Positions 1 through 11,861 of a DNA stretch of 11,863 nucleotides are shown piece after piece; within the stretch, counting starts at the first letter, position 1, and each line of letters opens with the position of its first letter. Both the position numbers and the translations under genes were made by a program. The stretch is from NCBI GenBank assembly GCA_963977445.1, contig CAXBPH010000218.1, positions 1 to 11,863 of the forward strand, read 5' to 3'. Below the pieces are notes generated by a model. The model was not told where the DNA came from, did no database searches, and saw nothing but the letters and a program-made list of their open reading frames with translations. Source of the stretch: an uncultured bacterium (GTDB taxonomy: Bacteria; Hydrogenedentota; Hydrogenedentia; Hydrogenedentales; JAEUWI01).

Positions 1-48
1 GAAAATGAGGGCTTTAAGATCACGAAGGTCCAAGCGGCCTCTGCCTGA
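1..48 (+). CDS. Probable 3' end of a gene entering from the left edge (...ENEGFKITKVQAASA*), product unknown
   Basis: Frame 1 is open from base 1 to TGA at 46-48 with protein-like composition, and stops 9 bp before the convergent stop at 58. Too short to assign a family. Confidence 0.45.
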   Translation, partial: ENEGFKITKVQAASA

Positions 49-57
49 AACGGGTAA

Positions 58-1131
58 TCAGTCCGTAAATAGCTCTAGAATCTCCGGTTCGCGGGGCGGT
101 ATAAAGATGGGGTAGAGGTCCACCAGAACCTCTACGTCTATTGCCGCGTACTGTATTTGATCGGGGGCAAGGGGGCGAAGTGTCCAATCGGAAGTCTGAT
201 TGGTCTTGTCCAGGTATATCCCCAATTCCCGTTCGCAGACATCTCCCAGTTTGTGACTCAGGCCCACACTCTTCTTATGCTTTCTCCGCGACCAATGTAG
301 CGTATCGAATACATTGTGAATCTTGATACCATGTTTGCCGAGCATCTGCTCTTCAAAGAAGGCATTGTGAATGACCTTTTCAATCTGGTCATTCTCCATG
401 ATGGCCTTTACGGGCGCGAGATCGTCCATGGCCAGGGCGTCAATAATCCACGAGAAACCCTTTATCCCCAGCTGAATCGTGCAAAGCTTCCGAGGCTCTT
501 CCAAGGTGGTTTCCACGTCAAGGGCAACCATGGGTTCGCTGGCAATCTTGCTGCAAACCCGGGCCATTTCTTCGTAGGTGTCAATCCATGTGATGGGAAA
601 CCGGGGCTCATAGATACCCGCCCGTCGAATGGCCACCACAAGGGCGTTGTCTTCCGAATCCACTTCGAGAAGTCGGACCTCGCGCACATCACAGTTTGAC
701 GCCAGCGATGCGAAATAGGATCGGGCCCCCTCGGGACCCTGTGAGGGGTCGTCGACGCACTTATTCCAATGTCTGCTCGCGATAAGCAAGGTGCCGCCGG
801 GGCGCACGTTGTTGAAGGCCTTTTCAAAGGCCTGTCTACGTCCATCGTCGGTCTTGAGGCGGGTCATGAGGTATATCATCAATACCATGTCGAACTGTTG
901 TTCGGGCCACTCGCTAAACCCGTAGGGGACATGGGGGTCGTAACCGGTCGCGTTGAATTTGCGGCGTTTCAGCCAATTCAGGTCGATTCCACGTCCGCAC
1001 CCGAAACAAAGTATCTCCTGCTTCGGGTGGAGATGAAGGGTTTCAACGAGGCGTTGGAGTATGGGGGCCGCTTCGGTGCGGTTACGCACGCGGCGCTGTG
1101 GTTCGTTATCGGGGGATAGGGTGTTGCTCAT
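58..1131 (-). CDS. Fusion protein (357 aa): N-terminal class I SAM-methyltransferase-like domain plus C-terminal DEDDy 3'-5' exonuclease (RNase D/PolA-exo type, no HRDC domain)
   Basis: N-terminal half: LCFGCGRG (motif I-like), GYDP, FDMVL and VRPGGTLLI. C-terminal half: Exo I ALDVET (D205/E207), Exo II VIHNAFFE, VFDTL, QTSDWTLRPL and Exo III YAAID, all typical of the RNase D/WRN-like exonuclease family. Confidence 0.88.
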   Translation of the reverse strand: MSNTLSPDNEPQRRVRNRTEAAPILQRLVETLHLHPKQEILCFGCGRGIDLNWLKRRKFNATGYDPHVPYGFSEWPEQQFDMVLMIYLMTRLKTDDGRRQAFEKAFNNVRPGGTLLIASRHWNKCVDDPSQGPEGARSYFASLASNCDVREVRLLEVDSEDNALVVAIRRAGIYEPRFPITWIDTYEEMARVCSKIASEPMVALDVETTLEEPRKLCTIQLGIKGFSWIIDALAMDDLAPVKAIMENDQIEKVIHNAFFEEQMLGKHGIKIHNVFDTLHWSRRKHKKSVGLSHKLGDVCERELGIYLDKTNQTSDWTLRPLAPDQIQYAAIDVEVLVDLYPIFIPPREPEILELFTD

Positions 1132-1169
1132 GCTATACGATAGGGCTTGTCAGGTTCAGGGGACGGCAA

Positions 1170-4067
1170 TCAACGTACGGAAATCTGGTAGCGAAGCTTA
1201 CGAAAGGCCTGGCCTTCCTGAGATTTCGGATCTTTTCCATGGCATAGAATTTCATAGGTTCCACTCTTATCGAAGGCATGGGAAAATTCTGGAAGCCTTC
1301 CAACGATGGTCCCATTTATCGACCATTCGATGGTATTAAATGCGCCAAAATTCTCAGAGGTACTAAAGCGTACCGCGGTGTTTACGGTCGTTTCAACAGG
1401 CACCGGCGCTTCATCTGCCACAGTATACGTGCCATTCCACGCTGCCTTCAATTGGTCACCTGAAAATTCCTCTAAACTGAGGGAAAAGGTGCCTGCCTTT
1501 TCGGCGACCAGCGCCAGGGTGGCTTTGCCGATACCTTCTTGGACAATTTTGCCGTCCCGTTTCCATACGAATCGACGTCCTGCCTGCGTCTGCAGGGGAA
1601 TCTGTATATATTGGCCTGTCGTGAAGTTGCTGGAAAAGTCTATCTCGATGCGCTCGATCACGTTGGAACCGGTGGTAATCGTCGGGTTGGGCGGTGTCGC
1701 ACCCATCTGGAAGGACAAACGGAGTTCTATGGTCTCTGCCTGCCCCACAATCTGGAGAACATAGTCTCCCGGTTGGATCTTGTCGGCCACCGGGGAAATT
1801 CGCACGGTACCGGCGGGGGCGGAGAGCCCCTCAATGATAAACATGGGGGCGACCGTCCCGTGATCGACAAAGCGATAGCCTTTGACTACGTCGGAAGTGG
1901 CGGGCTTGCCGTTACGCTTGACCGCAACCGTGGCGACATCATCGAGGGACCGAAAAACGACCGTGGTGGGTTCTACGGTGAGGCCAACTACAGGGAGGAC
2001 TTCCACAGGCCGCTCCATGGTGGGGACAGTACCCGACGTGACCGGCGATCCCTCTTTCTTCATGGCCGAAGCTTCACGCCGGGCCAACGCTTCACGAGCT
2101 ACCCTGGCAGCGGTGTCGAGGGCATTGCGTGCTTCCTCATGGGCCTGCCGAAAGGTGCTCGCTGCTTCGTCATAGGCGGTATCGGCACCACTAAAGTCTT
2201 CATTCTTGACGGCGTTGCGGGCGGCGGCAAGAGATTCCAGAGCAGATTCATAGCGGGCCGTGGCATACTGGGTGGCCTGGCTTCCCTTGGCTTTCTCTTG
2301 GAGAGCCATGACCTCCTTGTCGCGGACCTTAAGTCCTTCCAGGCGGTCATTCATTGCCCCCGCTGCCTTCCGACCCTTCGTGAACTCGTCATATAGGGAT
2401 TTGGCTTCAAGGAACCCATTCTCCGCACGGGCCCACGCTGCGTCTTCTCGAAGTAGTCGGGCGTTCTCCAATTGCTTCTGTGCCGCGATCAGGGACTCAG
2501 GAGCTTCCGCTTCCCCAAGGGCTTCGCGGGCCGAATCTTCTGCCTGTTCTGCGGATACCTGGGCGTCATTCAGGGCTTGCTCCCACGTGAACTGGGCTGC
2601 CGTAGCGAGTTGTCGGGATTCTTCGATGGACTGAAGCACCGTATCGGCGGCAATTTGCCATTGACTCAGGGGAGTCGCCTCGTCCAGGTTTTTAAAGGCG
2701 TTCCACCCATCCACCGCAGATTTGTGGGCCTCTGGTGCCCACTGGATCGGGGAGCTTTCCGCTTCAAAGGCTTCCCATGCCTCCTGGGTGGCGAAACGCA
2801 ACTGGTCACGCTCGGCCTGATTGGGTGTCGATGGATCCACCGTCACCACGGGCGGCCCTTCGTCGTCGGGTACTACCAGTGTGGGAAGCTCCGGTGGCGA
2901 ATCAGACAGAACCATCCACGTCGCCCATTGCTTCTGCAGCGTCTCCCGAGCCGGTGGATAGAAGGAAACACCTGCAAGCAAAACCAACAGTAGCAAGAGC
3001 ACTACCGTAGTCCAAGCAGCATGCTTCTTTCGCGGACGTGTTGCTTGCCGGAGTGCGGCGGCGAGTTCTTCCGCAGTTTGATAGCGGTCTTCTCGCTGGG
3101 ATTCCAGGCAGCGCATGATTACCCGGTCCAGCGCACGACTCACAGCTTTGTTTAACTTGGATGGGGGATGAATATGACCCACCGGAACTTCGCCGGTAAG
3201 CAGCTGATAGATAATGACCCCGACCGAATAGAGATCGGAACGTTTGTCGACTTCACCGGGACGGATACTTTGCTCGGGCGACTGATAGTAGACGGTCCCC
3301 AACACCATACTTGATTGGGTAAGTTGTCCGGGAGACATCATCTTCGCGAGTCCAAAATCGAGGACCAGAATTCGGCCATTGGGTCGAAGCATGATATTCA
3401 GTGGCTTGAGGTCCCGATGCACCAGAGAGGTATGGGCATAACTGAGGACGTCCAGCAACTGGAGAATGATGTCCACCGTTTCTTCTACGGTGAGTCGACC
3501 GCCCCTGCGGATCAATAACTCACTCAGGGTGGTGCCTTCGACATATTCCATAGAAAAGAAGCAACTGCCCGTGCGGCTATCGCGACCATAATCAAATACA
3601 CGAATGATACCCGGGTGTGCGAGGCGTTGGAGGGCTTTGATTTCCAGGATAAATCGATTCTGGGCTTCTTTGCTCGCGAGAAGGCCCGGCAACATGGTCT
3701 TCAAGGCCTTCTGGTCATTCAGGCGAAGGTCATTTGCAAGATAGACCGCGCCCATACCCCCGGCACCCAACTGTTTCACCAACTGGAATCGCTCATTGAT
3801 CATGGTGCCGGGTGAATACATGGGCGCTTCGTGGGCCGCTTGGAGGTCATTGAGAAAGGAGCTTTCACCCAGTATGGTGGACGCATTCTTTATATTGGCT
3901 TTGAGATGGTGGCCCTGGGGCAAGCGACGGGTGTCGCCGGGATCGAGGAGTGGTTCTGCGTGTTCCATGTCGCCCATGATACTGTCCAGCTGGGCTTCGG
4001 AATCTTCAAAGGGGTTTTCGCCCGGTCGGGGTGGTCGTGACTTTGGCGGTTCTTTCATCTCTTCCAT
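1170..4067 (-). CDS. Transmembrane Hanks-type Ser/Thr protein kinase (965 aa) with a large extracytoplasmic region (helical repeats plus Ig/PKD-like beta domains)
   Basis: Complete kinase motif set: LGAGGMGAVY, KALK, MEYVEG, HRDLKPLN (D219), DFG (D237), GTVYYQSPEQ, SDLYSVG. A basic patch RPRKKH is followed by a hydrophobic helix (WTTVVLLLLLVLLAGVSFY). Purine-rich GGAACGGGGA lies directly upstream of the ATG. Confidence 0.95.
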   Translation of the reverse strand: MEEMKEPPKSRPPRPGENPFEDSEAQLDSIMGDMEHAEPLLDPGDTRRLPQGHHLKANIKNASTILGESSFLNDLQAAHEAPMYSPGTMINERFQLVKQLGAGGMGAVYLANDLRLNDQKALKTMLPGLLASKEAQNRFILEIKALQRLAHPGIIRVFDYGRDSRTGSCFFSMEYVEGTTLSELLIRRGGRLTVEETVDIILQLLDVLSYAHTSLVHRDLKPLNIMLRPNGRILVLDFGLAKMMSPGQLTQSSMVLGTVYYQSPEQSIRPGEVDKRSDLYSVGVIIYQLLTGEVPVGHIHPPSKLNKAVSRALDRVIMRCLESQREDRYQTAEELAAALRQATRPRKKHAAWTTVVLLLLLVLLAGVSFYPPARETLQKQWATWMVLSDSPPELPTLVVPDDEGPPVVTVDPSTPNQAERDQLRFATQEAWEAFEAESSPIQWAPEAHKSAVDGWNAFKNLDEATPLSQWQIAADTVLQSIEESRQLATAAQFTWEQALNDAQVSAEQAEDSAREALGEAEAPESLIAAQKQLENARLLREDAAWARAENGFLEAKSLYDEFTKGRKAAGAMNDRLEGLKVRDKEVMALQEKAKGSQATQYATARYESALESLAAARNAVKNEDFSGADTAYDEAASTFRQAHEEARNALDTAARVAREALARREASAMKKEGSPVTSGTVPTMERPVEVLPVVGLTVEPTTVVFRSLDDVATVAVKRNGKPATSDVVKGYRFVDHGTVAPMFIIEGLSAPAGTVRISPVADKIQPGDYVLQIVGQAETIELRLSFQMGATPPNPTITTGSNVIERIEIDFSSNFTTGQYIQIPLQTQAGRRFVWKRDGKIVQEGIGKATLALVAEKAGTFSLSLEEFSGDQLKAAWNGTYTVADEAPVPVETTVNTAVRFSTSENFGAFNTIEWSINGTIVGRLPEFSHAFDKSGTYEILCHGKDPKSQEGQAFRKLRYQISVR

Positions 4068-4097
4068 TCCCCGTTCCAGTAACGTTTCCGCCCTTCG

Positions 4098-5282
4098 TCA
4101 GCCATAGAGCCACCACAATACAGCACCAAAAAGGGATGCGAGCAAAGCAGCCACAAGTAACTTCTTGTACCCCGATTTTTCCGCACGAAGCAACGCCCCT
4201 TTCACTTCCTGTGCCGTCTGATAGCGGCGTTCGGGGCGGGTTTCGAGGCAGCCCATGACAACGCGGCCCAGACGTTTCGGAATAGCGCGATTTACCCGTG
4301 AAGGGGATGGTACATCGCCAATGGGTACCACCCCGGTCAGCATCTGATAGAGGAGTACCCCCACCGCATAGATATCCACCTGTGGCGTAGTAATTTCCGG
4401 GTCTACGCTCTGCTCCGGGGCCTGATAGTGAATGGAACCCAGATTTCTCTTGCGATTACTCATTTTGGATAGGGTGTCATGGGAGATTCCGAAATTGAGC
4501 AGGACAATTTTGCCCGTAGGACGGATCATGACGTTCAGGGGCTTCAGGTTCTTGTAGACGCAATGTTTGTGGGCGTAAATCAAGGTGTCGAGAATCTGAT
4601 GTATGATGGAGAGACTTCGATCAAGGGGAAGCCGTCCGCCTTTCTTCTTGAGGATATCGGCGAGGGTCGCGCCTTTTACATATTCCATGGTGAAATAAGT
4701 CAACTCACCGTGATCGGTTTTCCCGAGGTCATAGACGCGAACAATGTGCTCGTGGGATAGGCGCTGCAGCCCCTTCACTTCACTGACGAACCGGCCTTCC
4801 GCCTCTGGACTGGCCATGAGCTCGGAGTGCATGAGCTTGAGTGCTTTGTTGTCTTTCAGGCGGAGATCGTCGACACGATAGACCGTACCCAAGGCACCCA
4901 CGCCAATGACGTCGCGGATTTCGAAGCGCTCGTTAAGGACTTCACCGACTTCTGGAACGTAATTGTTCCACTCCCGGGTGATGAAGAGTTCCCGGGGGGT
5001 GGACATATTGACGTCGGCCTCATCGAACACCGTGGGCGGTTCGAAGGCACTCCCCATCGCCCCACTGGGCAGGCTCAAGTCGAGGGCCGCCTCATCTTCC
5101 AGGCCGAGAGAGGCCTCCTGATCGGCTGATGGGGGCGGTGTCGACCGGGTGTCTTTGGGTACACCACGATGTTTCTGGTTGGCCCAGGGGTCGAAAGAAT
5201 CCATATTCGAATCGAATGCACTGATCTCGGGTGTATTCGGTTCCTCAACACCTTCTGGCTTGTCTGTGTCATCTTTTTTCAT
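4098..5282 (-). CDS. Hanks-type Ser/Thr kinase-like protein (394 aa), predicted pseudokinase, with C-terminal membrane anchor
   Basis: Kinase-fold motifs IGVGALGTVY, KALK, MEYVKG, YQAPEQ and DIYAVG are present, but the catalytic loop reads YKNLKPLN and the Mg-binding loop reads NFG. The protein ends in KKLLVAALLASLFGAVLWWLYG*. The N-terminal ~100 aa are acidic and Pro-rich, probably disordered. Confidence 0.93.
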   Translation of the reverse strand: MKKDDTDKPEGVEEPNTPEISAFDSNMDSFDPWANQKHRGVPKDTRSTPPPSADQEASLGLEDEAALDLSLPSGAMGSAFEPPTVFDEADVNMSTPRELFITREWNNYVPEVGEVLNERFEIRDVIGVGALGTVYRVDDLRLKDNKALKLMHSELMASPEAEGRFVSEVKGLQRLSHEHIVRVYDLGKTDHGELTYFTMEYVKGATLADILKKKGGRLPLDRSLSIIHQILDTLIYAHKHCVYKNLKPLNVMIRPTGKIVLLNFGISHDTLSKMSNRKRNLGSIHYQAPEQSVDPEITTPQVDIYAVGVLLYQMLTGVVPIGDVPSPSRVNRAIPKRLGRVVMGCLETRPERRYQTAQEVKGALLRAEKSGYKKLLVAALLASLFGAVLWWLYG

Positions 5283-5336
5283 GCAGCAACCCGGTCTACA
5301 TACAAGTGGGGCGGTCTGTCGCCGATGTACACCAAC

Positions 5337-5365
5337 ATCATAGCGCAGATAGACAGGTATTAGAA
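5337..5365 (-). promoter_or_regulatory. Possible sigma70-type promoter for the pseudokinase/kinase unit
   Basis: Minus strand TTCTAA (5365-5360), 17-nt spacer, TATGAT (5342-5337), 54 nt upstream of the ATG at 5282. The -10 is a good match and the -35 is weak. Confidence 0.3.
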
Positions 5366-5593
5366 AGTGTAGTTTGGGAGTCTGACCTCTGGCCGTCCTG
5401 GCTGCATAGCGATTCCTTCAAAGCACCTTCGCCGCTTCTCCCGCCGTGCGTATTGAGATGGGCAACGAGATAGACAATTTCGGTGCGAACTACGTATAGT
5501 TGCGTGGGTGCGCGGACCTGTTTGTCTTTACAACGAATAGCGCATGTATTGCTGTGTAGTAACAATCGACGCTGGTCACAGGGAGCGGACTTT

Positions 5594-5848
5594 ATGATTG
5601 GTGAGGAAGTCGTTGTTGGATTTTTCCTGTGGGTGGGCCGGGGGATTCTTGAAGTTTTCTACTGGATCTACGACCTGTCGTTTTTGCCCCGTATCATCTC
5701 CTTCCCAGGCACCCTCATCCTCACGTGCATTTTCGGAGCGGACCGCAGGAATGAAAATTCTCCCGACGTCAAAGAATATGTGGTGGGGGCCATTTTCTGG
5801 CTGGCGGTACTGTTCTTGATCTATCTGTATTTCCGCCCAACGCTGTAG
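5594..5848 (+). CDS. Small hypothetical membrane protein (84 aa)
   Basis: ATG at 5594 is preceded by an SD-like AGGGAG. The product has two or three hydrophobic segments (e.g. YVVGAIFWLAVLFLIYLYF) and fills the gap up to the convergent stop at 5859. The ORF-track start at 5483 is probably too long. Confidence 0.65.
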   Translation: MIGEEVVVGFFLWVGRGILEVFYWIYDLSFLPRIISFPGTLILTCIFGADRRNENSPDVKEYVVGAIFWLAVLFLIYLYFRPTL

Positions 5849-5858
5849 CCGCCACGCC

Positions 5859-7667
5859 TTAGAGCGTCTCCACGCCGAGATGGCGCTTGATAAAGGCCAA
5901 GAAGAGCTCGCCGCGTAACGTGTCTTTGCCCTCCATCCCGGGTTGCACGTCACATTCGATTCCCAAGGCATCCATTTCTTTCTTGAGTGCATATCCGAAC
6001 CGGGGGTGATGTATTCCAATGCTGCGGTTCAGAATGGGCGCATCTTTTTCGCTCTTGTAGATGAGCAACGCGGGCGGGTCGTCTTTACTAAGATGGGGCA
6101 AGGCGGATACCGCATCAAAAAGTTGGTATTTCTCCTCGGGTAGCTCGTCCAGTTTCTTCAGATTCACGCCAAAAAGATTGGCGAGCGCGCTATTGGTCCA
6201 GGTGTCGGTTCCGGGAAAAAGATCGCGAATAAAACGGGGGTCGTAGGAAGTTTGTCCATTTTCCACCGCCATGCAGGTCAGACGCGTCGATTGGCGAAGT
6301 ATGGGATCGGCATTGTCGGGGTCGGCCATGTCATCATGAAATCCCAGCCAGAGGGAGAGGCCCGCCCCGGCGGATCCGCCGGAAGAAGCTATACGGGTGG
6401 GATCCATATTCCAGGCCCCGGCGTTGTGGCGGATAAATTGTATGGCCCGAGCGATATCATCGAATTGGGCGGGTGCGATGGCCTCGTCGGCGAAGCGATA
6501 GGTGAGGGTCACGACGGCGATGCCCGCTTCCAGGCATTCACGAAGATAGTGATTGCTTATCTTCTTCTGTCCATGACGAAAGGCACCACCATGGATGGAG
6601 AGCAGTACCGGCGCGGGGGTGGGGGAGTCCACCACCCAAACGTCCATCAGGTTTCGGTCGTGGGGACCATACTTCACATTGCGGTGGGTGGGCAGGACTG
6701 CAGGAACAAACAAGTCTTCATCATCGTCCAGGCCCATGAGATTGACGTTTCGGGTGAGCTGCTTATCGAAGAAGGCCATGGTCTCGTTCCACGCTGCTTC
6801 CGAAGCGACAGCGGAATTGCGAATGCCGTGGCCCCCTTCTTCCAGGAGCAGCAATTGGGTCTCCGGCTGAATGGGTGTCATGGCCTCGTACATCTGCACG
6901 GATTGCTGAAAGGGAACGGTGCCATCGTCTCTGCAATGCACCAGTAAGAGAGGGGCGTCATCCGCCGAGAGGTGATAGATGGGCGATGCCATCTTCCAGG
7001 CGTCACTGTCGGGGGAGAAGGCTTCCCCGATCCAGGCACCGTTGCTTTCCCGTTTCTCGTCTCGTTTATTGCTTTGCTGGCCGCCATCACTGAGGCGGGA
7101 GATAAAGTCGCTGACCCCGGCGAAGGAAACGGCGGCCTGGATGCGGCTGGACACACCGGCGTTCGCGCCCGCGCCTTCCAGGTCGGACTCGTCCGCCGTT
7201 ACGGCGAGCAATTGGGTAAGATGGCCGCCCGCCGATTGACCGAAGGCTCCGATACGTTTGGGGTCGATGTTGTAGCGCTCCCCGTTGGCCCGTAGAAAGC
7301 GAACTGCGGCTTTGGTGTCGCTGACCGTATCCAGGAAGGTGTGCTCTGGAGCCCCACGATAGCCGATGGACGCTGCCACGAATCCTGCTTCGGCAAGGCG
7401 TTGGGCTTCGGCGCCGAACTTCTCGCGGCTCTGCGCACGGAAACCACCACCGGGGATGACTACAATGGCGGGAACGGGTTTGCTCAGCCCGTGGGGAAAA
7501 TACAAATCGAGCTGGAGCGGACCGGACGGCGTGGACGTGAAGTCCAGGGCGCGATAGACATCAATAGTGGGGGAGATTGACTCGGGAGACTGAGCGATTC
7601 CTACCGGTGCCATGAGCACGATGGTTAGCAAGGCAATGAGCCTGTTTAAACTCGACGTAAAGGACAT
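5859..7667 (-). CDS. Secreted tandem alpha/beta hydrolase (602 aa): two HSL/BD-FAE-like esterase domains
   Basis: Start placed at ATG 7667 (SD GAGGA upstream), followed by signal-peptide-like MSFTSSLNRLIALLTIVLMAPVGIA. Domain 1: LDLY, IPGGGF, YR, GQSAGG, DDGTVP, GHG. Domain 2: MDVW, IHGGAF, YR, GGSAGA, DPPALL, IHHP. Confidence 0.92.
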   Translation of the reverse strand: MSFTSSLNRLIALLTIVLMAPVGIAQSPESISPTIDVYRALDFTSTPSGPLQLDLYFPHGLSKPVPAIVVIPGGGFRAQSREKFGAEAQRLAEAGFVAASIGYRGAPEHTFLDTVSDTKAAVRFLRANGERYNIDPKRIGAFGQSAGGHLTQLLAVTADESDLEGAGANAGVSSRIQAAVSFAGVSDFISRLSDGGQQSNKRDEKRESNGAWIGEAFSPDSDAWKMASPIYHLSADDAPLLLVHCRDDGTVPFQQSVQMYEAMTPIQPETQLLLLEEGGHGIRNSAVASEAAWNETMAFFDKQLTRNVNLMGLDDDEDLFVPAVLPTHRNVKYGPHDRNLMDVWVVDSPTPAPVLLSIHGGAFRHGQKKISNHYLRECLEAGIAVVTLTYRFADEAIAPAQFDDIARAIQFIRHNAGAWNMDPTRIASSGGSAGAGLSLWLGFHDDMADPDNADPILRQSTRLTCMAVENGQTSYDPRFIRDLFPGTDTWTNSALANLFGVNLKKLDELPEEKYQLFDAVSALPHLSKDDPPALLIYKSEKDAPILNRSIGIHHPRFGYALKKEMDALGIECDVQPGMEGKDTLRGELFLAFIKRHLGVETL

Positions 7668-7710
7668 GACACGTTCCTCGCTTCGCTTTTTTAAGCTATG
7701 TAGACGTAGA

Positions 7711-7739
7711 AATGTAACTATGGGCACAGAGGGCTTCAA
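7711..7739 (-). promoter_or_regulatory. Putative sigma70-type promoter of the hydrolase gene
   Basis: Minus strand TTGAAG (7739-7734), 17-nt spacer, TACATT (7716-7711), 43 nt upstream of ATG 7667, in an AT-rich stretch. Confidence 0.45.
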
Positions 7740-7923
7740 GATATCAATGTACGCCGCAGTATTTGATGCCATAACCCACAAAATTTAAACCACCAACGGC
7801 GTCTGGCATGCTGGCTACGGCAGCGGGGATATTCAGCTTCCCATTCGAGTTTTTTGCATTCATTCTGCTATCCAATATTCCCGGGTTGAGAACTTCGGTC
7901 GTGAAAACGTATCGGATAATCTC

Positions 7924-9210
7924 TCAACTCGCCGAGTTACCACGAAGACATGCCAACACATCAGGGCGTCCGATGGTGTCTTCCGGACCCAGCGTGGCAC
8001 CCGCTGCAACCAGTTTCATGGCGCAGGCCAGATAGTCCCCGTCGGGGTTGGGACAAAATGCGGGCGTCTGAACCGATGCAAAGGCCAGGCTCTGGGCTGC
8101 CGCCCCGCCGAATTCATTCTTGGCCGTTAAGTCGGCGCCTTCTTCGATGAGTCGCTGAAGAATTTGGGGATAGCCGCGCAATGCCGCCACGATCAACGGC
8201 GTATGCCCATGGTTCCATCGGGTATCCACCGGTACGCCGCAGTTCAACAAGGCTTCGACGGATTCGAGTTTGCCATTCCAGACCATATCTCCGAGCATGG
8301 TGTTTAGCGGAGGGGTCGCATTTTCCAACAGGTTGGCGTCATGTGCAACTTCCGCCTTCGCAGTGTCCACATCACCCAGGCGAATTGCAGCGGCAAATCG
8401 GTTGCGCGGTGAGGCATGGGGGCGCAGCAATTCATAGGCGTCGCGCTGTCCGCACCATGCGGCGACTTCGATAGGCGAGAGTCCACCCCCGAGACGCCAG
8501 AGATAGATGTTACCGCCTTTTTTCCCCATGGGGTCTTTGGTGGGTACGTCATAACGCCCCTCGCCAATACGCCATTCGATAGAATCCGGTTCTTCTTTTA
8601 AGCGCGCGGAAATGGTGACTCTATCGTCCCGCGCTATGGCCAGAAAAATATCAATGGTGGCTCCCTGCTCGACCAGATAATCCAGGACTTGGGGACGTTG
8701 CCGGACCATATACTGGGCGGCGGTTGACTCGTGATCGACACACCGGGCATCAATATTGGCCCCCCGGTCTAGAAGAAGTGTCGCCATGGCCACGCTTTGT
8801 GCATAGTGGAGGGGCAAGACACCGTCCCCACCGCGGGCGTGAACCTGTGTCGGGTCTTCCCGGAGGACCTCCAATACGGCCTCCTGATCATCCCAGCTGG
8901 TGTAGGTAAAGATGTCGGGCGTAGCGCCTCGCTCCACAAGGAGCCCCCCGATTTCTGGGTCCGTGCCTTCAAGTATATGGAAGGGTCCGGGCTCCCATTC
9001 ACTTTTTTGATTGATATCCGCACCGAACTCAAGCAATACATCGAGGAGGGGTAAGTTATCTTTCACCATGTGAACGGCGGTCTGACCGAAGGAAAACAAG
9101 GGCTGATTGATGAACGTATCTAAATCTTCGGCGGAAGCGAGGCATGCACGAAGTGGCTCCACCTCACCCTGGTAGACGACGGTGCAGAAGTGTTGCAAGT
9201 CAGTTGGCAT
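7924..9210 (-). CDS. Ankyrin-repeat protein (~428 aa)
   Basis: Repeated ankyrin signatures: GQTAVH...LLEFGADINQK, GVLPLHYA...LLLDRGANIDAR, LVEQGA, GHTPLIVAALRGYPQILQRLIEEGADLTAKN. ATG 9210 has TAAGGTG 6 nt upstream and is preferred over GTG 9219. Confidence 0.92.
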   Translation of the reverse strand: MPTDLQHFCTVVYQGEVEPLRACLASAEDLDTFINQPLFSFGQTAVHMVKDNLPLLDVLLEFGADINQKSEWEPGPFHILEGTDPEIGGLLVERGATPDIFTYTSWDDQEAVLEVLREDPTQVHARGGDGVLPLHYAQSVAMATLLLDRGANIDARCVDHESTAAQYMVRQRPQVLDYLVEQGATIDIFLAIARDDRVTISARLKEEPDSIEWRIGEGRYDVPTKDPMGKKGGNIYLWRLGGGLSPIEVAAWCGQRDAYELLRPHASPRNRFAAAIRLGDVDTAKAEVAHDANLLENATPPLNTMLGDMVWNGKLESVEALLNCGVPVDTRWNHGHTPLIVAALRGYPQILQRLIEEGADLTAKNEFGGAAAQSLAFASVQTPAFCPNPDGDYLACAMKLVAAGATLGPEDTIGRPDVLACLRGNSAS

Positions 9211-9377
9211 GGAAGACACCTTATTGGGTGTTACGATAAACAGGAAATTTCTGTTAGCCTAGCATGACGTAGAATACACATCAACATGAGCGCAGATGCC
9301 TGATGGGCCATTGTGGACACCTGATCGAATACCGCAGGAATACACACTCGTATGGGCCGGGGTGAATCAATTGAACG

Positions 9378-10669: not shown

Positions 10670-11386
10670 ATGTTTCAAGACTTGAGCCAACGTGTTCCGG
10701 CCCTCGAAGAGATGGATCGCGAGGATATTCCTAAGAATGCCCTCGAAGGAGCCCTTAAGAGTCTCATCCGCATGAATAGCGTGGGGAACTGCGCGGCCAT
10801 CTTCTGGCCCGAGTTGCGAAAACTCTTGCAGCAGCGCACGGACGCAAACGGTCCGCTCCGTGTCCTGGATGTAGGCTGTGGTGCCGGCGATCTCACCTGG
10901 CGCTTGGAAGCTCGGGCGCAGCGAGAAGGTTATTCGCTGGTTGTCGACGGTTGCGACCTGAGTCCGGTTGCGATTTCCATGGCAACATCCCTCAACGAGA
11001 AACAAGGGGCCGCTGGAACATTCTTCGTGATGGATGCCGTCAACGACGAAATCCCCGAGGGCTATGACGTCATCCTGAGTTCGCTCTTTTTCCATCATCT
11101 CGACAACGAGGAAGGACGTATTGTATTACGGAAAATTGCCGACCGTGCGGGGACGGCGGTGTTGTTGAGTGACATGATTCGCTCGCGATTGGGCCTTGGG
11201 CTGGTCTATCTGGCCACACGAACGCTGAGTCGGTCGCCGGTGGTCCATGCAGACGGGGTAACGTCGCTTCTGGCGGCCTATACCACAACGGAAATCGTAG
11301 CACTCGCGGAGGAGCTTGGCTTACACGGTGCCACGCTGATGCGCCGTTGGCCCGAACGTTTCTTGATGACCTGGCAACGGGCCTGA
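10670..11386 (+). CDS. Class I SAM-dependent methyltransferase (238 aa), type commonly associated with type III PKS clusters
   Basis: VLDVGCGAGD, GCDLS, YDVILSSLFFHHL, DMIRS, N-terminal EEMD and C-terminal DGVTS..AAYT. ATG 10670 has GGAAAAAG upstream and avoids the 193-bp overlap implied by the 10403 start. Confidence 0.92.
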   Translation: MFQDLSQRVPALEEMDREDIPKNALEGALKSLIRMNSVGNCAAIFWPELRKLLQQRTDANGPLRVLDVGCGAGDLTWRLEARAQREGYSLVVDGCDLSPVAISMATSLNEKQGAAGTFFVMDAVNDEIPEGYDVILSSLFFHHLDNEEGRIVLRKIADRAGTAVLLSDMIRSRLGLGLVYLATRTLSRSPVVHADGVTSLLAAYTTTEIVALAEELGLHGATLMRRWPERFLMTWQRA

Positions 11387-11741
11387 AACAGACGTGGCCG
11401 TTAAGGAAAGAAGTGTCTTCGCTAAACCGCAAAGAGCAAGTGGCATCCGGCATCAGTACGTCTTGTAGACTCACTATATTTGCAGTTTATTACCATCAAA
11501 AGGTTGTTTCAGAAAGCCACTGCTTTTTATTGGTTCATGGGCAATTAGTGGGGATGATTCAATTGATACTTCAAGTGCCGGAGGCAATAGGATGACTCGA
11601 TGGGTTCTTGCGAATCATGTCGTCACGTAACTTTTTGCAGATAAAACGACAAACCATGGACGTGCCGCGCGATCTGGTACTCCAGTTCGTGCGAAGGGGC
11701 TGTGGGACATCGTTGGGATCTATTGTAGTTGTGGGAAGTCT

Positions 11742-11861
11742 TCAAGAGGCCATTGGGAACAGAGCATTGTGCTTGGCCTTGGCCTTGATGTAGAGACGTA
11801 GTCGTATATCCCAATCCGCGCACGAATCCTCCAACGGCGCATCTTCGACCGAAATACCGGA
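11742..11861 (-). CDS. Probable 3' end of a gene entering from the right edge (...SGISVEDAPLEDSCADWDIRLRLYIKAKAKHNALFPMAS*)
   Basis: Frame is open from the edge to TGA at 11744-11742. It is the most protein-like of the three minus frames, but the other two are also open for some distance. Confidence 0.4.
   Translation of the reverse strand, partial: SGISVEDAPLEDSCADWDIRLRLYIKAKAKHNALFPMAS

Follow-up and report, generated by a model that had tools for sequence, protein, structure and literature searches.

An 11,863-nucleotide (nt) stretch of DNA from an uncultured bacterium of the phylum Hydrogenedentota (contig CAXBPH010000218.1; the whole stretch is referred to below as the window) carries two co-oriented Hanks-type kinase genes, P0001 and P0002, on its minus strand. 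Judged from its sequence, P0001 is a member of a genus-restricted, selectively maintained and tail-anchored family of Hanks-type pseudokinases, here called clade A, and P0002 is its ancient, active-type sister. Taking the evidence together, the explanation that we favour, and consider reasonably probable, is that P0001 has a non-catalytic role that is independent of P0002. An earlier note on this DNA had instead proposed that the two genes form a dedicated pair resembling HER3/EGFR, a reading that we weigh below against the distribution of both genes among related genomes.

P0001 lacks both catalytic aspartates and ends in a membrane anchor

P0001 (positions 4098-5282, minus strand; 394 amino acids (aa) from its open reading frame (ORF) and translation) matches the Pfam Pkinase family (PF00069) with an E value of 1e-34 and 120.6 bits, compared with a cut-off of 31.7, and Pfam gave no further domain in this protein. 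The BLASTP alignment to P0002 delimits its kinase-fold domain to aa 112-372 (4167-4949; this and all following features are on the minus strand unless stated otherwise), and the clade A family profile aligns to Mycobacterium tuberculosis PknB (1MRU) with an E value of 1.7e-55. The catalytic loop of P0001 reads HCVYKNLKPLN, where HRDLKPxN is expected, and the DFG position reads LLNFGIS. In the translation and in the family column counts, Y243-K244-N245 (4548-4556) stands in place of HRD, with the catalytic aspartate changed to asparagine, and N263-F264-G265 (4488-4496) stands in place of DFG, with the metal-binding aspartate also changed to asparagine. If a pseudokinase is defined by sequence as lacking at least one of the VAIK lysine, the HRD aspartate and the DFG aspartate, P0001 is a pseudokinase on account of both N245 and N263.

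The kinase fold of P0001 is followed by a predicted C-terminal transmembrane (TM) tail anchor at aa 375-393 (4104-4160), where the Kyte-Doolittle score over 19 residues reaches its maximum of 2.14 at aa 375. This hydrophobic 19-mer, LLVAALLASLFGAVLWWLY, leaves one residue before the stop codon. The AlphaFold2 (AF2) model of P0001 has a mean predicted local distance difference test score (pLDDT) of 73.6, with values of ~80-96 in the kinase domain and below 50 for residues 1-105; the N-terminal ~105 aa and the activation segment are modelled as disordered, and one long helix (residues 357-393) runs into the TM tail. The earlier note had described the upstream copy as lacking both catalytic aspartates (YKN, NFG) and ending right after its TM helix, and the closer analysis bears this out.

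Clade A is a conserved family under purifying selection

A search of 5.8 billion protein clusters yielded 25 full-length relatives of P0001, which are 301-402 aa long and 41-60% identical to it, together with one fragment on a 2086-nt contig; with P0001 itself, the clade A alignment comprises 27 sequences. One of the orthologues comes from an organism named in its source 'Candidatus Hydrogenedentes bacterium'. The HRD aspartate is absent from all 27 sequences (asparagine in 14 and histidine in 13), as is the DFG aspartate, which is asparagine in 27/27. Clade A retains the VAIK (beta3) lysine (26/26), the alphaC glutamate (26/26), the catalytic-loop asparagine (27/27) and the Pro-Glu of APE (27/27), and the catalytic-loop lysine is retained in just 12 of the 27. 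Clade A is further relaxed, relative to the two closest active clades, at a position of the Gly-rich loop (P0001 aa 130, an invariant glycine in the active clades), in the LAK that comes right after DFG, and at the P+1-loop threonine. At the five catalytic positions, all nine clade A rows of the set used for the kinase-domain tree below read KE[N/H]NN, whereas all 27 non-A kinases read K-E-D-N-D. Every full-length member of the aligned family ends in a hydrophobic C-terminal tail.

Nei-Gojobori ratios of nonsynonymous to synonymous substitution rates (dN/dS) are 0.076-0.131 across six close clade A species pairs, indicating that the protein is under purifying selection. We rejected the idea of a decaying pseudogene on this ratio and on the 27 intact orthologues. 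The upstream copy is thus a genuine, maintained pseudokinase, as the earlier note had supposed.

The residues that clade A keeps also bear on whether P0001 is truly inactive. Because the lysine, the glutamate, the catalytic-loop asparagine and most of the Gly-rich loop are kept, nucleotide binding by P0001 is plausible, and the same residues could point to a weak or atypical phosphotransfer, or to a different activity such as those described for the kinase-fold proteins SelO and SidJ in the review PMC12599244. However, both aspartates are gone in the entire family, the catalytic-loop lysine persists in fewer than half of its members and the P+1-loop threonine varies, so we think it highly improbable that P0001 is anything other than a true pseudokinase.

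Two further features of clade A would suit a protein that is chiefly a phospho-acceptor scaffold, by analogy with the pseudokinase domain of M. tuberculosis MviN, with phospho-sites that recruit readers (for example, FHA domains) to the membrane. The activation segment is conserved as Ser/Thr-rich, with the consensus NFGLSTTxSSxGLP, and the disordered N-terminal region of ~105 aa carries the conserved short motifs EPxTIFD and PRE[LM]KIA. The MviN pseudokinase promotes recruitment of an inhibitory protein, according to the account given in PMC12599244. By contrast, Pfam detected no FHA or phosphatase gene in the window, and the activation segment of P0001 itself, NFGISHDTLSKMSN, deviates from the family consensus. 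A role chiefly as such a scaffold therefore seems unlikely.

P0002 is an active-type receptor kinase with an ancestral ectodomain

P0002 (1170-4067; 965 aa from translation and Pfam) matches Pkinase with an E value of 1.8e-40 and 139.5 bits against the same cut-off of 31.7. Its kinase domain, aligned with P0001 by BLASTP, spans aa 86-345 (3033-3812) and contains HRD at aa 217-219 (3411-3419) and DFG at aa 237-239 (3351-3359). The catalytic residues K123, E142, D219, N224 and D237 are intact and are invariant within the three-member P0002 family. A single hydrophobic segment, the predicted TM helix at aa 351-369 (2961-3017; Kyte-Doolittle maximum of 2.44 at aa 351), is followed by ~590 aa, in keeping with the earlier description of the downstream copy as an intact kinase (HRD, DFG) with one TM helix and an ectodomain of about that length. 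In the AF2 model of the ectodomain, which has a mean pLDDT of 80.1, a predicted extracellular region of long helices at aa 414-667 (2067-2828; model residues 39-292, with block pLDDT mostly 83-97) leads to three tandem immunoglobulin (Ig)-like beta-sandwich domains at aa 695-965 (1173-1985), whose sandwiches lie at ~aa 695-785, 813-883 and 888-963. Foldseek matched the Ig-like part to tandem Ig arrays, and no Pfam family matched the long-helix region. NCBIfam gave sub-threshold generic kinase matches and nothing else: PknB_PASTA_kin (NF033483) scored 264 bits against a cut-off of 450, with the match confined to the kinase part.

Full-length orthologues of P0002 are rare. The 5.8 billion clusters contained two metagenomic proteins, P0006 (964 aa) and P0007 (959 aa), and a HMMER pass over 1.84 billion representatives returned one cluster at E <= 1e-30. 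P0006 and P0007 are 91.6% and 89.7% identical to P0002 in the kinase domain, 35% and 29% across the TM helix and helical ectodomain region (aa 346-690), and 52% and 54% in the Ig-like part, respectively. For comparison, the P0001 kinase domain is 54-62% identical to the seven clade A members compared, against ~90% within the P0002 family. A metagenome scan for P0002-family loci returned six loci, all of them unrelated kinases at 25-38% identity.

The same helical and Ig-like ectodomain is found in P0168 (938 aa), a distant active kinase that branches just outside the group formed by clade A, P0002 and clade B, a set of soluble active kinases described below. Because this outgroup shares the ectodomain, the P0002 architecture of kinase, TM helix, helical stalk and three Ig-like domains is ancestral. 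A further metagenomic protein, P0237 (862 aa), aligns collinearly with the active P0168 (37% identity) and keeps the helical and Ig-like ectodomain; it is a dead receptor, in which HGN stands for HRD, NFG for DFG and glutamate for the VAIK lysine. Since P0237 has died independently, catalysis has been lost at least twice in this group of receptor kinases.

The three-Ig module of P0002 is not confined to the kinase. It recurs as a free protein of ~310-420 aa with a signal peptide; matches are present in 91 of 135 phylum genomes, this genome having at least two copies (G000:C28:7118-7978 and C45:11803-12660). Some of the free proteins exceed the Pfam cut-offs for BiPBP_C and PKD_3. In another family of the phylum, three active receptor-kinase paralogues with frames of 931-976 aa lie within 42 kb (G095:C7:316944-359581). 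All three retain K-E-D-N-D, with 55-57% identity to P0002 in the kinase domain.

P0001 and P0002 are sister lineages that predate the genus radiation

P0001 and P0002 are identical at 120 of 263 aligned positions (46%; BLASTP E value of 3e-82), and P0002 is the best paralogue of P0001 among 40 kinase-like matches in its own genome, a resemblance far beyond chance. The motifs that the earlier note had listed as shared by the two genes (NERF, DLRL..KALK, GGRL, LKPLN, YQxPEQS and RYQTA) are all visible in this 263-residue alignment.

In a maximum-likelihood tree of 36 kinase domains, clade A is monophyletic (support 100/99) and P0002 is sister to it (100/97), so the two domains group together as had been predicted. 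Sister to both is clade B (99/95), which consists of soluble, active kinases of ~340 aa present in eight of the nine genomes of the genus; the clade B kinase of this genome is encoded at G000:C1:59671-60471, and its gene context revealed nothing informative. A 41-row tree with metagenomic sequences places P0002, P0006 and P0007 in one group (100/99) that is sister to clade A (14 rows; 100/100), with the joint node supported at 99/97. As P0002 is sister to the whole of clade A, the duplication predates the radiation of the genus, and P0001 is no recent tandem copy. Consistent with this, the approximately unbiased (AU) test rejected a clade of P0001 and P0002 (p = 0.0015), and with it a recent tandem duplication. 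The tandem duplication suggested in the earlier note is therefore a reasonable origin for two sister kinase lineages, but not as a recent event. Gene conversion between the copies was considered as well and rejected: P0001 is 45.7% identical to P0002, no closer than the other clade A members at 44.6-48.8%.

Related genomes keep the pseudokinase without P0002

We compared nine genomes of the genus (this one and eight congeners), 32 from other genera and 135 across the phylum. A clade A orthologue is present in all nine genus genomes, and those of the eight congeners have open frames of 379-471 aa and are 45-55% identical to P0001. Within the 32 out-of-genus genomes, the best P0001 matches are at most 40% identical, and K-E-D-N-D is kept in all 11 that were inspected. 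No P0002 orthologue was found in any of the eight congeners: matches to the P0002 query were limited to the kinase domains of clades A, B and others, and the ectodomain had no match there as part of a receptor kinase. Among the 135 phylum genomes searched, the full P0002 ectodomain was found in this genome only, and no P0002 orthologue came to light in the 134 others.

In six of the eight congeners (G001, G002, G003, G006, G007 and G008), the pseudokinase gene is followed directly by an orthologue of P0004, the gene that lies beyond P0002 in the window. The spacing is ~60-270 nt in five of these and ~670 nt in G002, and the six syntenic loci contained neither a second kinase match nor an ectodomain remnant, with tblastn at noise level. 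The long spacer of G002 (locus L047, G002:C474, ~11086 to 11841) is free of kinase or ectodomain matches. For the remaining two congeners, the G005 contig ends just past the pseudokinase, and in G004 the pseudokinase lies in a different context. The uninterrupted junctions between pseudokinase and P0004 in six congeners are direct evidence for the absence of P0002 at the locus. The earlier expectation of conservation thus holds for the loss of the aspartates, which is seen in all 27 sequences, but not for the pair and its order.

These results bear on the proposal of a dedicated HER3/EGFR-like role for P0001, as a co-receptor, allosteric activator or brake that would specifically regulate the adjacent P0002 by heterodimerization. 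Several features are in line with such a regulator: P0001 and P0002 are sister paralogues separated by 30 nt that contain no terminator-like site, both are predicted to cross the membrane once, by a TM helix that immediately follows the kinase domain, both conserve the equivalents of the PknB back-to-back interface (see below), and the two have apparently stayed adjacent since before the genus radiated. However, a protein serving P0002 alone should vanish together with P0002, whereas all eight congeners keep the pseudokinase under purifying selection without P0002, and six of them have it directly abutting P0004. By co-occurrence (pseudokinase in 8/8 congeners, P0002 in 0/8), the two are not an obligate pair of the HER3/EGFR kind. 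Given these non-syntenic orthologues, dedication to the neighbour fails as the general function of the family; we regard the proposal as unlikely, and it survives as a possibility for this species only.

The absence of P0002 from all eight congeners, together with the scarcity of its orthologues in the two cluster searches (two others and one cluster, respectively), could alternatively mean that P0002 arrived by transfer or recombination from a relative, so that its adjacency to P0001 would be secondary and without a functional link. We consider this very unlikely. That the closest paralogue should land 30 nt away in the same orientation, among ~6000 genes, would be a large coincidence, and P0002 is sister to clade A, as a tandem duplicate would be. 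Rather, this species and at least two relatives known from metagenomes appear to have retained the active copy, with loss, not gain, accounting for the pattern elsewhere.

A DNA run labelled as an ice metagenome (X1) contains low-depth contigs of 200-560 nt whose sequences match parts of P0004, P0002, P0001 and the upstream region (window positions 1-6000) at 90-97% identity. As the contigs match pieces of both kinase genes, a close relative with both genes is present in this ice metagenome; none of the contigs spans positions 4001-4200.

A proposed non-catalytic role for the pseudokinase

The history that best accommodates these data would begin with a tandem duplication before the genus radiation, giving rise to the clade A and P0002 lineages. 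Clade A would then have lost both the ectodomain and catalysis, clade B would have lost its membrane anchor, and P0002 would have kept the ancestral plan. Because eight species keep the pseudokinase without P0002, the core role of the pseudokinase should be independent of P0002, and P0001 would thus work without catalysis and without needing its neighbour. We propose that P0001 most likely acts non-catalytically on active Hanks kinases, for which it may serve as a membrane-anchored dimerization partner, scaffold or phospho-acceptor. In this species, P0002 would be the obvious candidate and is likely to be a partner of P0001, yet it offers no reason for the existence of clade A.

The residues that align with R10, L33 and D76 of PknB are conserved in clade A (26/26 each) and in P0002. 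L33 and D76 of PknB correspond to L142 and D185 of P0001 and to L116 and D159 of P0002. In PknB and StkP, the combination of L33D and D76A is reported to disrupt the back-to-back interface between N-lobes, as presented in PMC13434768. Since the equivalents of all three residues are kept, a back-to-back heterodimer of P0001 and P0002 is sterically plausible. Complex prediction with the two kinase domains scored 0.14, 0.33 and 0.19 in three runs against a mark of 0.32 and without controls, which speaks neither for nor against binding.

Extending this idea, the tail-anchored pseudokinase might act in trans as an allosteric activator or brake of active Hanks kinases through N-lobe back-to-back heterodimers at the membrane, with a partner that depends on the species: P0002 where it is retained, and elsewhere, for example, a clade B kinase. 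We put this forward as a tentative and rather unlikely model. If true, it would represent a bacterial, independently evolved counterpart of HER3/EGFR. The dead receptor P0237 (HGN/NFG), which belongs to a separate lineage, hints that the pairing of dead and live kinases may recur in this receptor family.

Several points weigh against our reading of P0001 as an old pseudokinase with a role independent of P0002. The congener assemblies are 91-96% complete, so that absence from a genome is not absolute. As this genome nests with G003 and G007 in the clade A and clade B trees, at least three losses of P0002 would be required, and it may instead have been gained by recombination from a relative. 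A grouping of P0002 with clade B is rejected only weakly by the AU test (p = 0.027). P0006 and P0007, on contigs of 3516 and 3694 nt, may or may not sit beside a pseudokinase: the flanks extend over only ~620-810 nt, and none of the clade A matches has a contig of either length. Finally, the same interface residues occur in the soluble clade B kinases and in PknB-like kinases and therefore do not single out P0002 as the partner.

Organization of the locus and neighbouring genes

On the minus strand, the order of transcription is a double hydrolase of the BD-FAE type, P0001, P0002 and P0004, with gaps of 576 nt between the hydrolase and P0001, 30 nt between P0001 and P0002, and 38 nt between P0002 and P0004. 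The P0001 stop codon is TGA at 4098-4100 and the P0002 ATG is at 4067, leaving a spacer at 4068-4097 that includes the purine-rich stretch GGAACGGGGA. The two Pkinase genes are therefore co-oriented and separated by 30 nt, exactly as in the earlier note; an alternative in-frame ATG for P0002 at 4058 would lengthen the spacer to 39 nt. A terminator scan found no site within the 30-nt spacer and nothing convincing there; in total it gave nine sites, compared with 5.6 +/- 2.5 in shuffles (not clearly above), and a promoter scan gave three sites where 2.7 were expected. P0001 and P0002 are probably co-transcribed in this species.

P0004 (58-1131) encodes a fusion protein in which a methyltransferase-like domain is joined to a 3'-5' exonuclease domain resembling RNase D (Pfam DNA_pol_A_exo1, E value of 2.9e-33; Methyltransf_23, E value of 1.4e-8). 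Its N terminus resembles S-adenosylmethionine-dependent methyltransferases, and its exonuclease part is RNase D/DnaQ-like. In the hydrolase (5859-7781; 640 aa), a hydrophobic segment at the N terminus precedes two BD-FAE/alpha-beta-hydrolase domains arranged in tandem (Pfam BD-FAE, E value of 9e-78 over two stretches); among the loci examined, G003 alone has an orthologue of it upstream of the pseudokinase. The 576-nt region upstream of P0001 contains a divergent small ORF on the plus strand (5483-5848), which has a hydrophobic C terminus and no Pfam match. This ORF is kept in G003 (61% identity over 89 aa) and, cut by the end of the contig, in G007, and it is probably a real gene for a small membrane protein. 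Further upstream, an ankyrin-repeat protein of 431 aa is encoded at 7924-9219 (Pfam Ank, E value of 1.9e-20). Ankyrin repeats are an uncommon domain among bacteria.

Discussion

The closest solved relatives of both kinase domains are the receptor kinases PknB of M. tuberculosis and StkP of Streptococcus pneumoniae. P0002 shares their plan of kinase, TM helix and ectodomain, but its ectodomain consists of long helices and three Ig-like domains instead of PASTA repeats. P0001 differs from them more strongly, as it lacks both catalytic aspartates and any ectodomain. Its topology of a Hanks fold with no extracellular sensor and a C-terminal TM anchor is that described for Bacillus subtilis YabT in PMC6333020. 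However, YabT is described there as an active, DNA-stimulated kinase, and it shows no sequence kinship with P0001 beyond the fold.

Seven families of bacterial serine/threonine kinase (STK) pseudokinases are described in a preprint and a review: ActPs1, ActPs2, ActPs3/MviN, GLW, CP1, DYD and DLHK (bioRxiv 10.1101/2025.01.12.632604; PMC12599244). Like these families, clade A combines a conserved Hanks fold with degraded motifs, and like several of them it is predicted to be membrane-associated. The VAIK lysine is reported to be substituted in all seven, in every member of ActPs1-3, DLHK and GLW, in 60% of DYD and in 34% of CP1 (10.1101/2025.01.12.632604), whereas clade A, unlike ActPs1-3, GLW and DLHK, keeps it in 26/26 sequences. 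According to the review, CP1 and DLHK have no TM regions, CP1 is associated with an ATPase domain (COG3899), and canonical HRD and/or DFG persists in DYD (PMC12599244). P0001 differs from CP1 in its C-terminal TM helix and in the lack of any Pfam domain other than Pkinase, and clade A differs from DYD in having lost both the HRD and the DFG aspartate. Judged by these features, with the lysine kept, both aspartates lost and a tail anchor present, clade A fits none of the seven families.

In the literature that we searched, we came across no account of a bacterial pseudokinase that forms a pair with its active paralogue. The words tandem and heterodimer are absent from the texts of the review PMC12599244 and the preprint 10.1101/2025.01.12.632604, as are adjacent and neighbor from that of the review, although the supplements of these papers might list related families. 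More generally, bacterial STK genes are known to undergo tandem duplication (PMC11032199, which cites Perez et al. 2008). The resemblance to the pairs HER3/EGFR, STRAD/LKB1 and JAK JH2/JH1 lies in the combination of a dead with a live paralogue, here with both membrane-anchored. Several clade A members read HRN in the catalytic loop, as does HER3. Unlike HER3/EGFR, P0001 has no ectodomain, the pair is missing in all eight congeners, and its origin is independent and bacterial.

Bacterial Hanks-type pseudokinases have been catalogued, yet they have hardly been studied by experiment. New here is a family with a distinct pattern of degradation, in which the lysine is kept and both aspartates are replaced by asparagine or histidine. 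The genus also offers a natural comparison between one species that has the active sister beside the pseudokinase and eight relatives that have the pseudokinase only. This locus makes the allosteric regulation of a kinase by a bacterial pseudokinase directly testable; if there is no such regulation, clade A would be just another dead kinase, specific to one lineage of an uncultured phylum.

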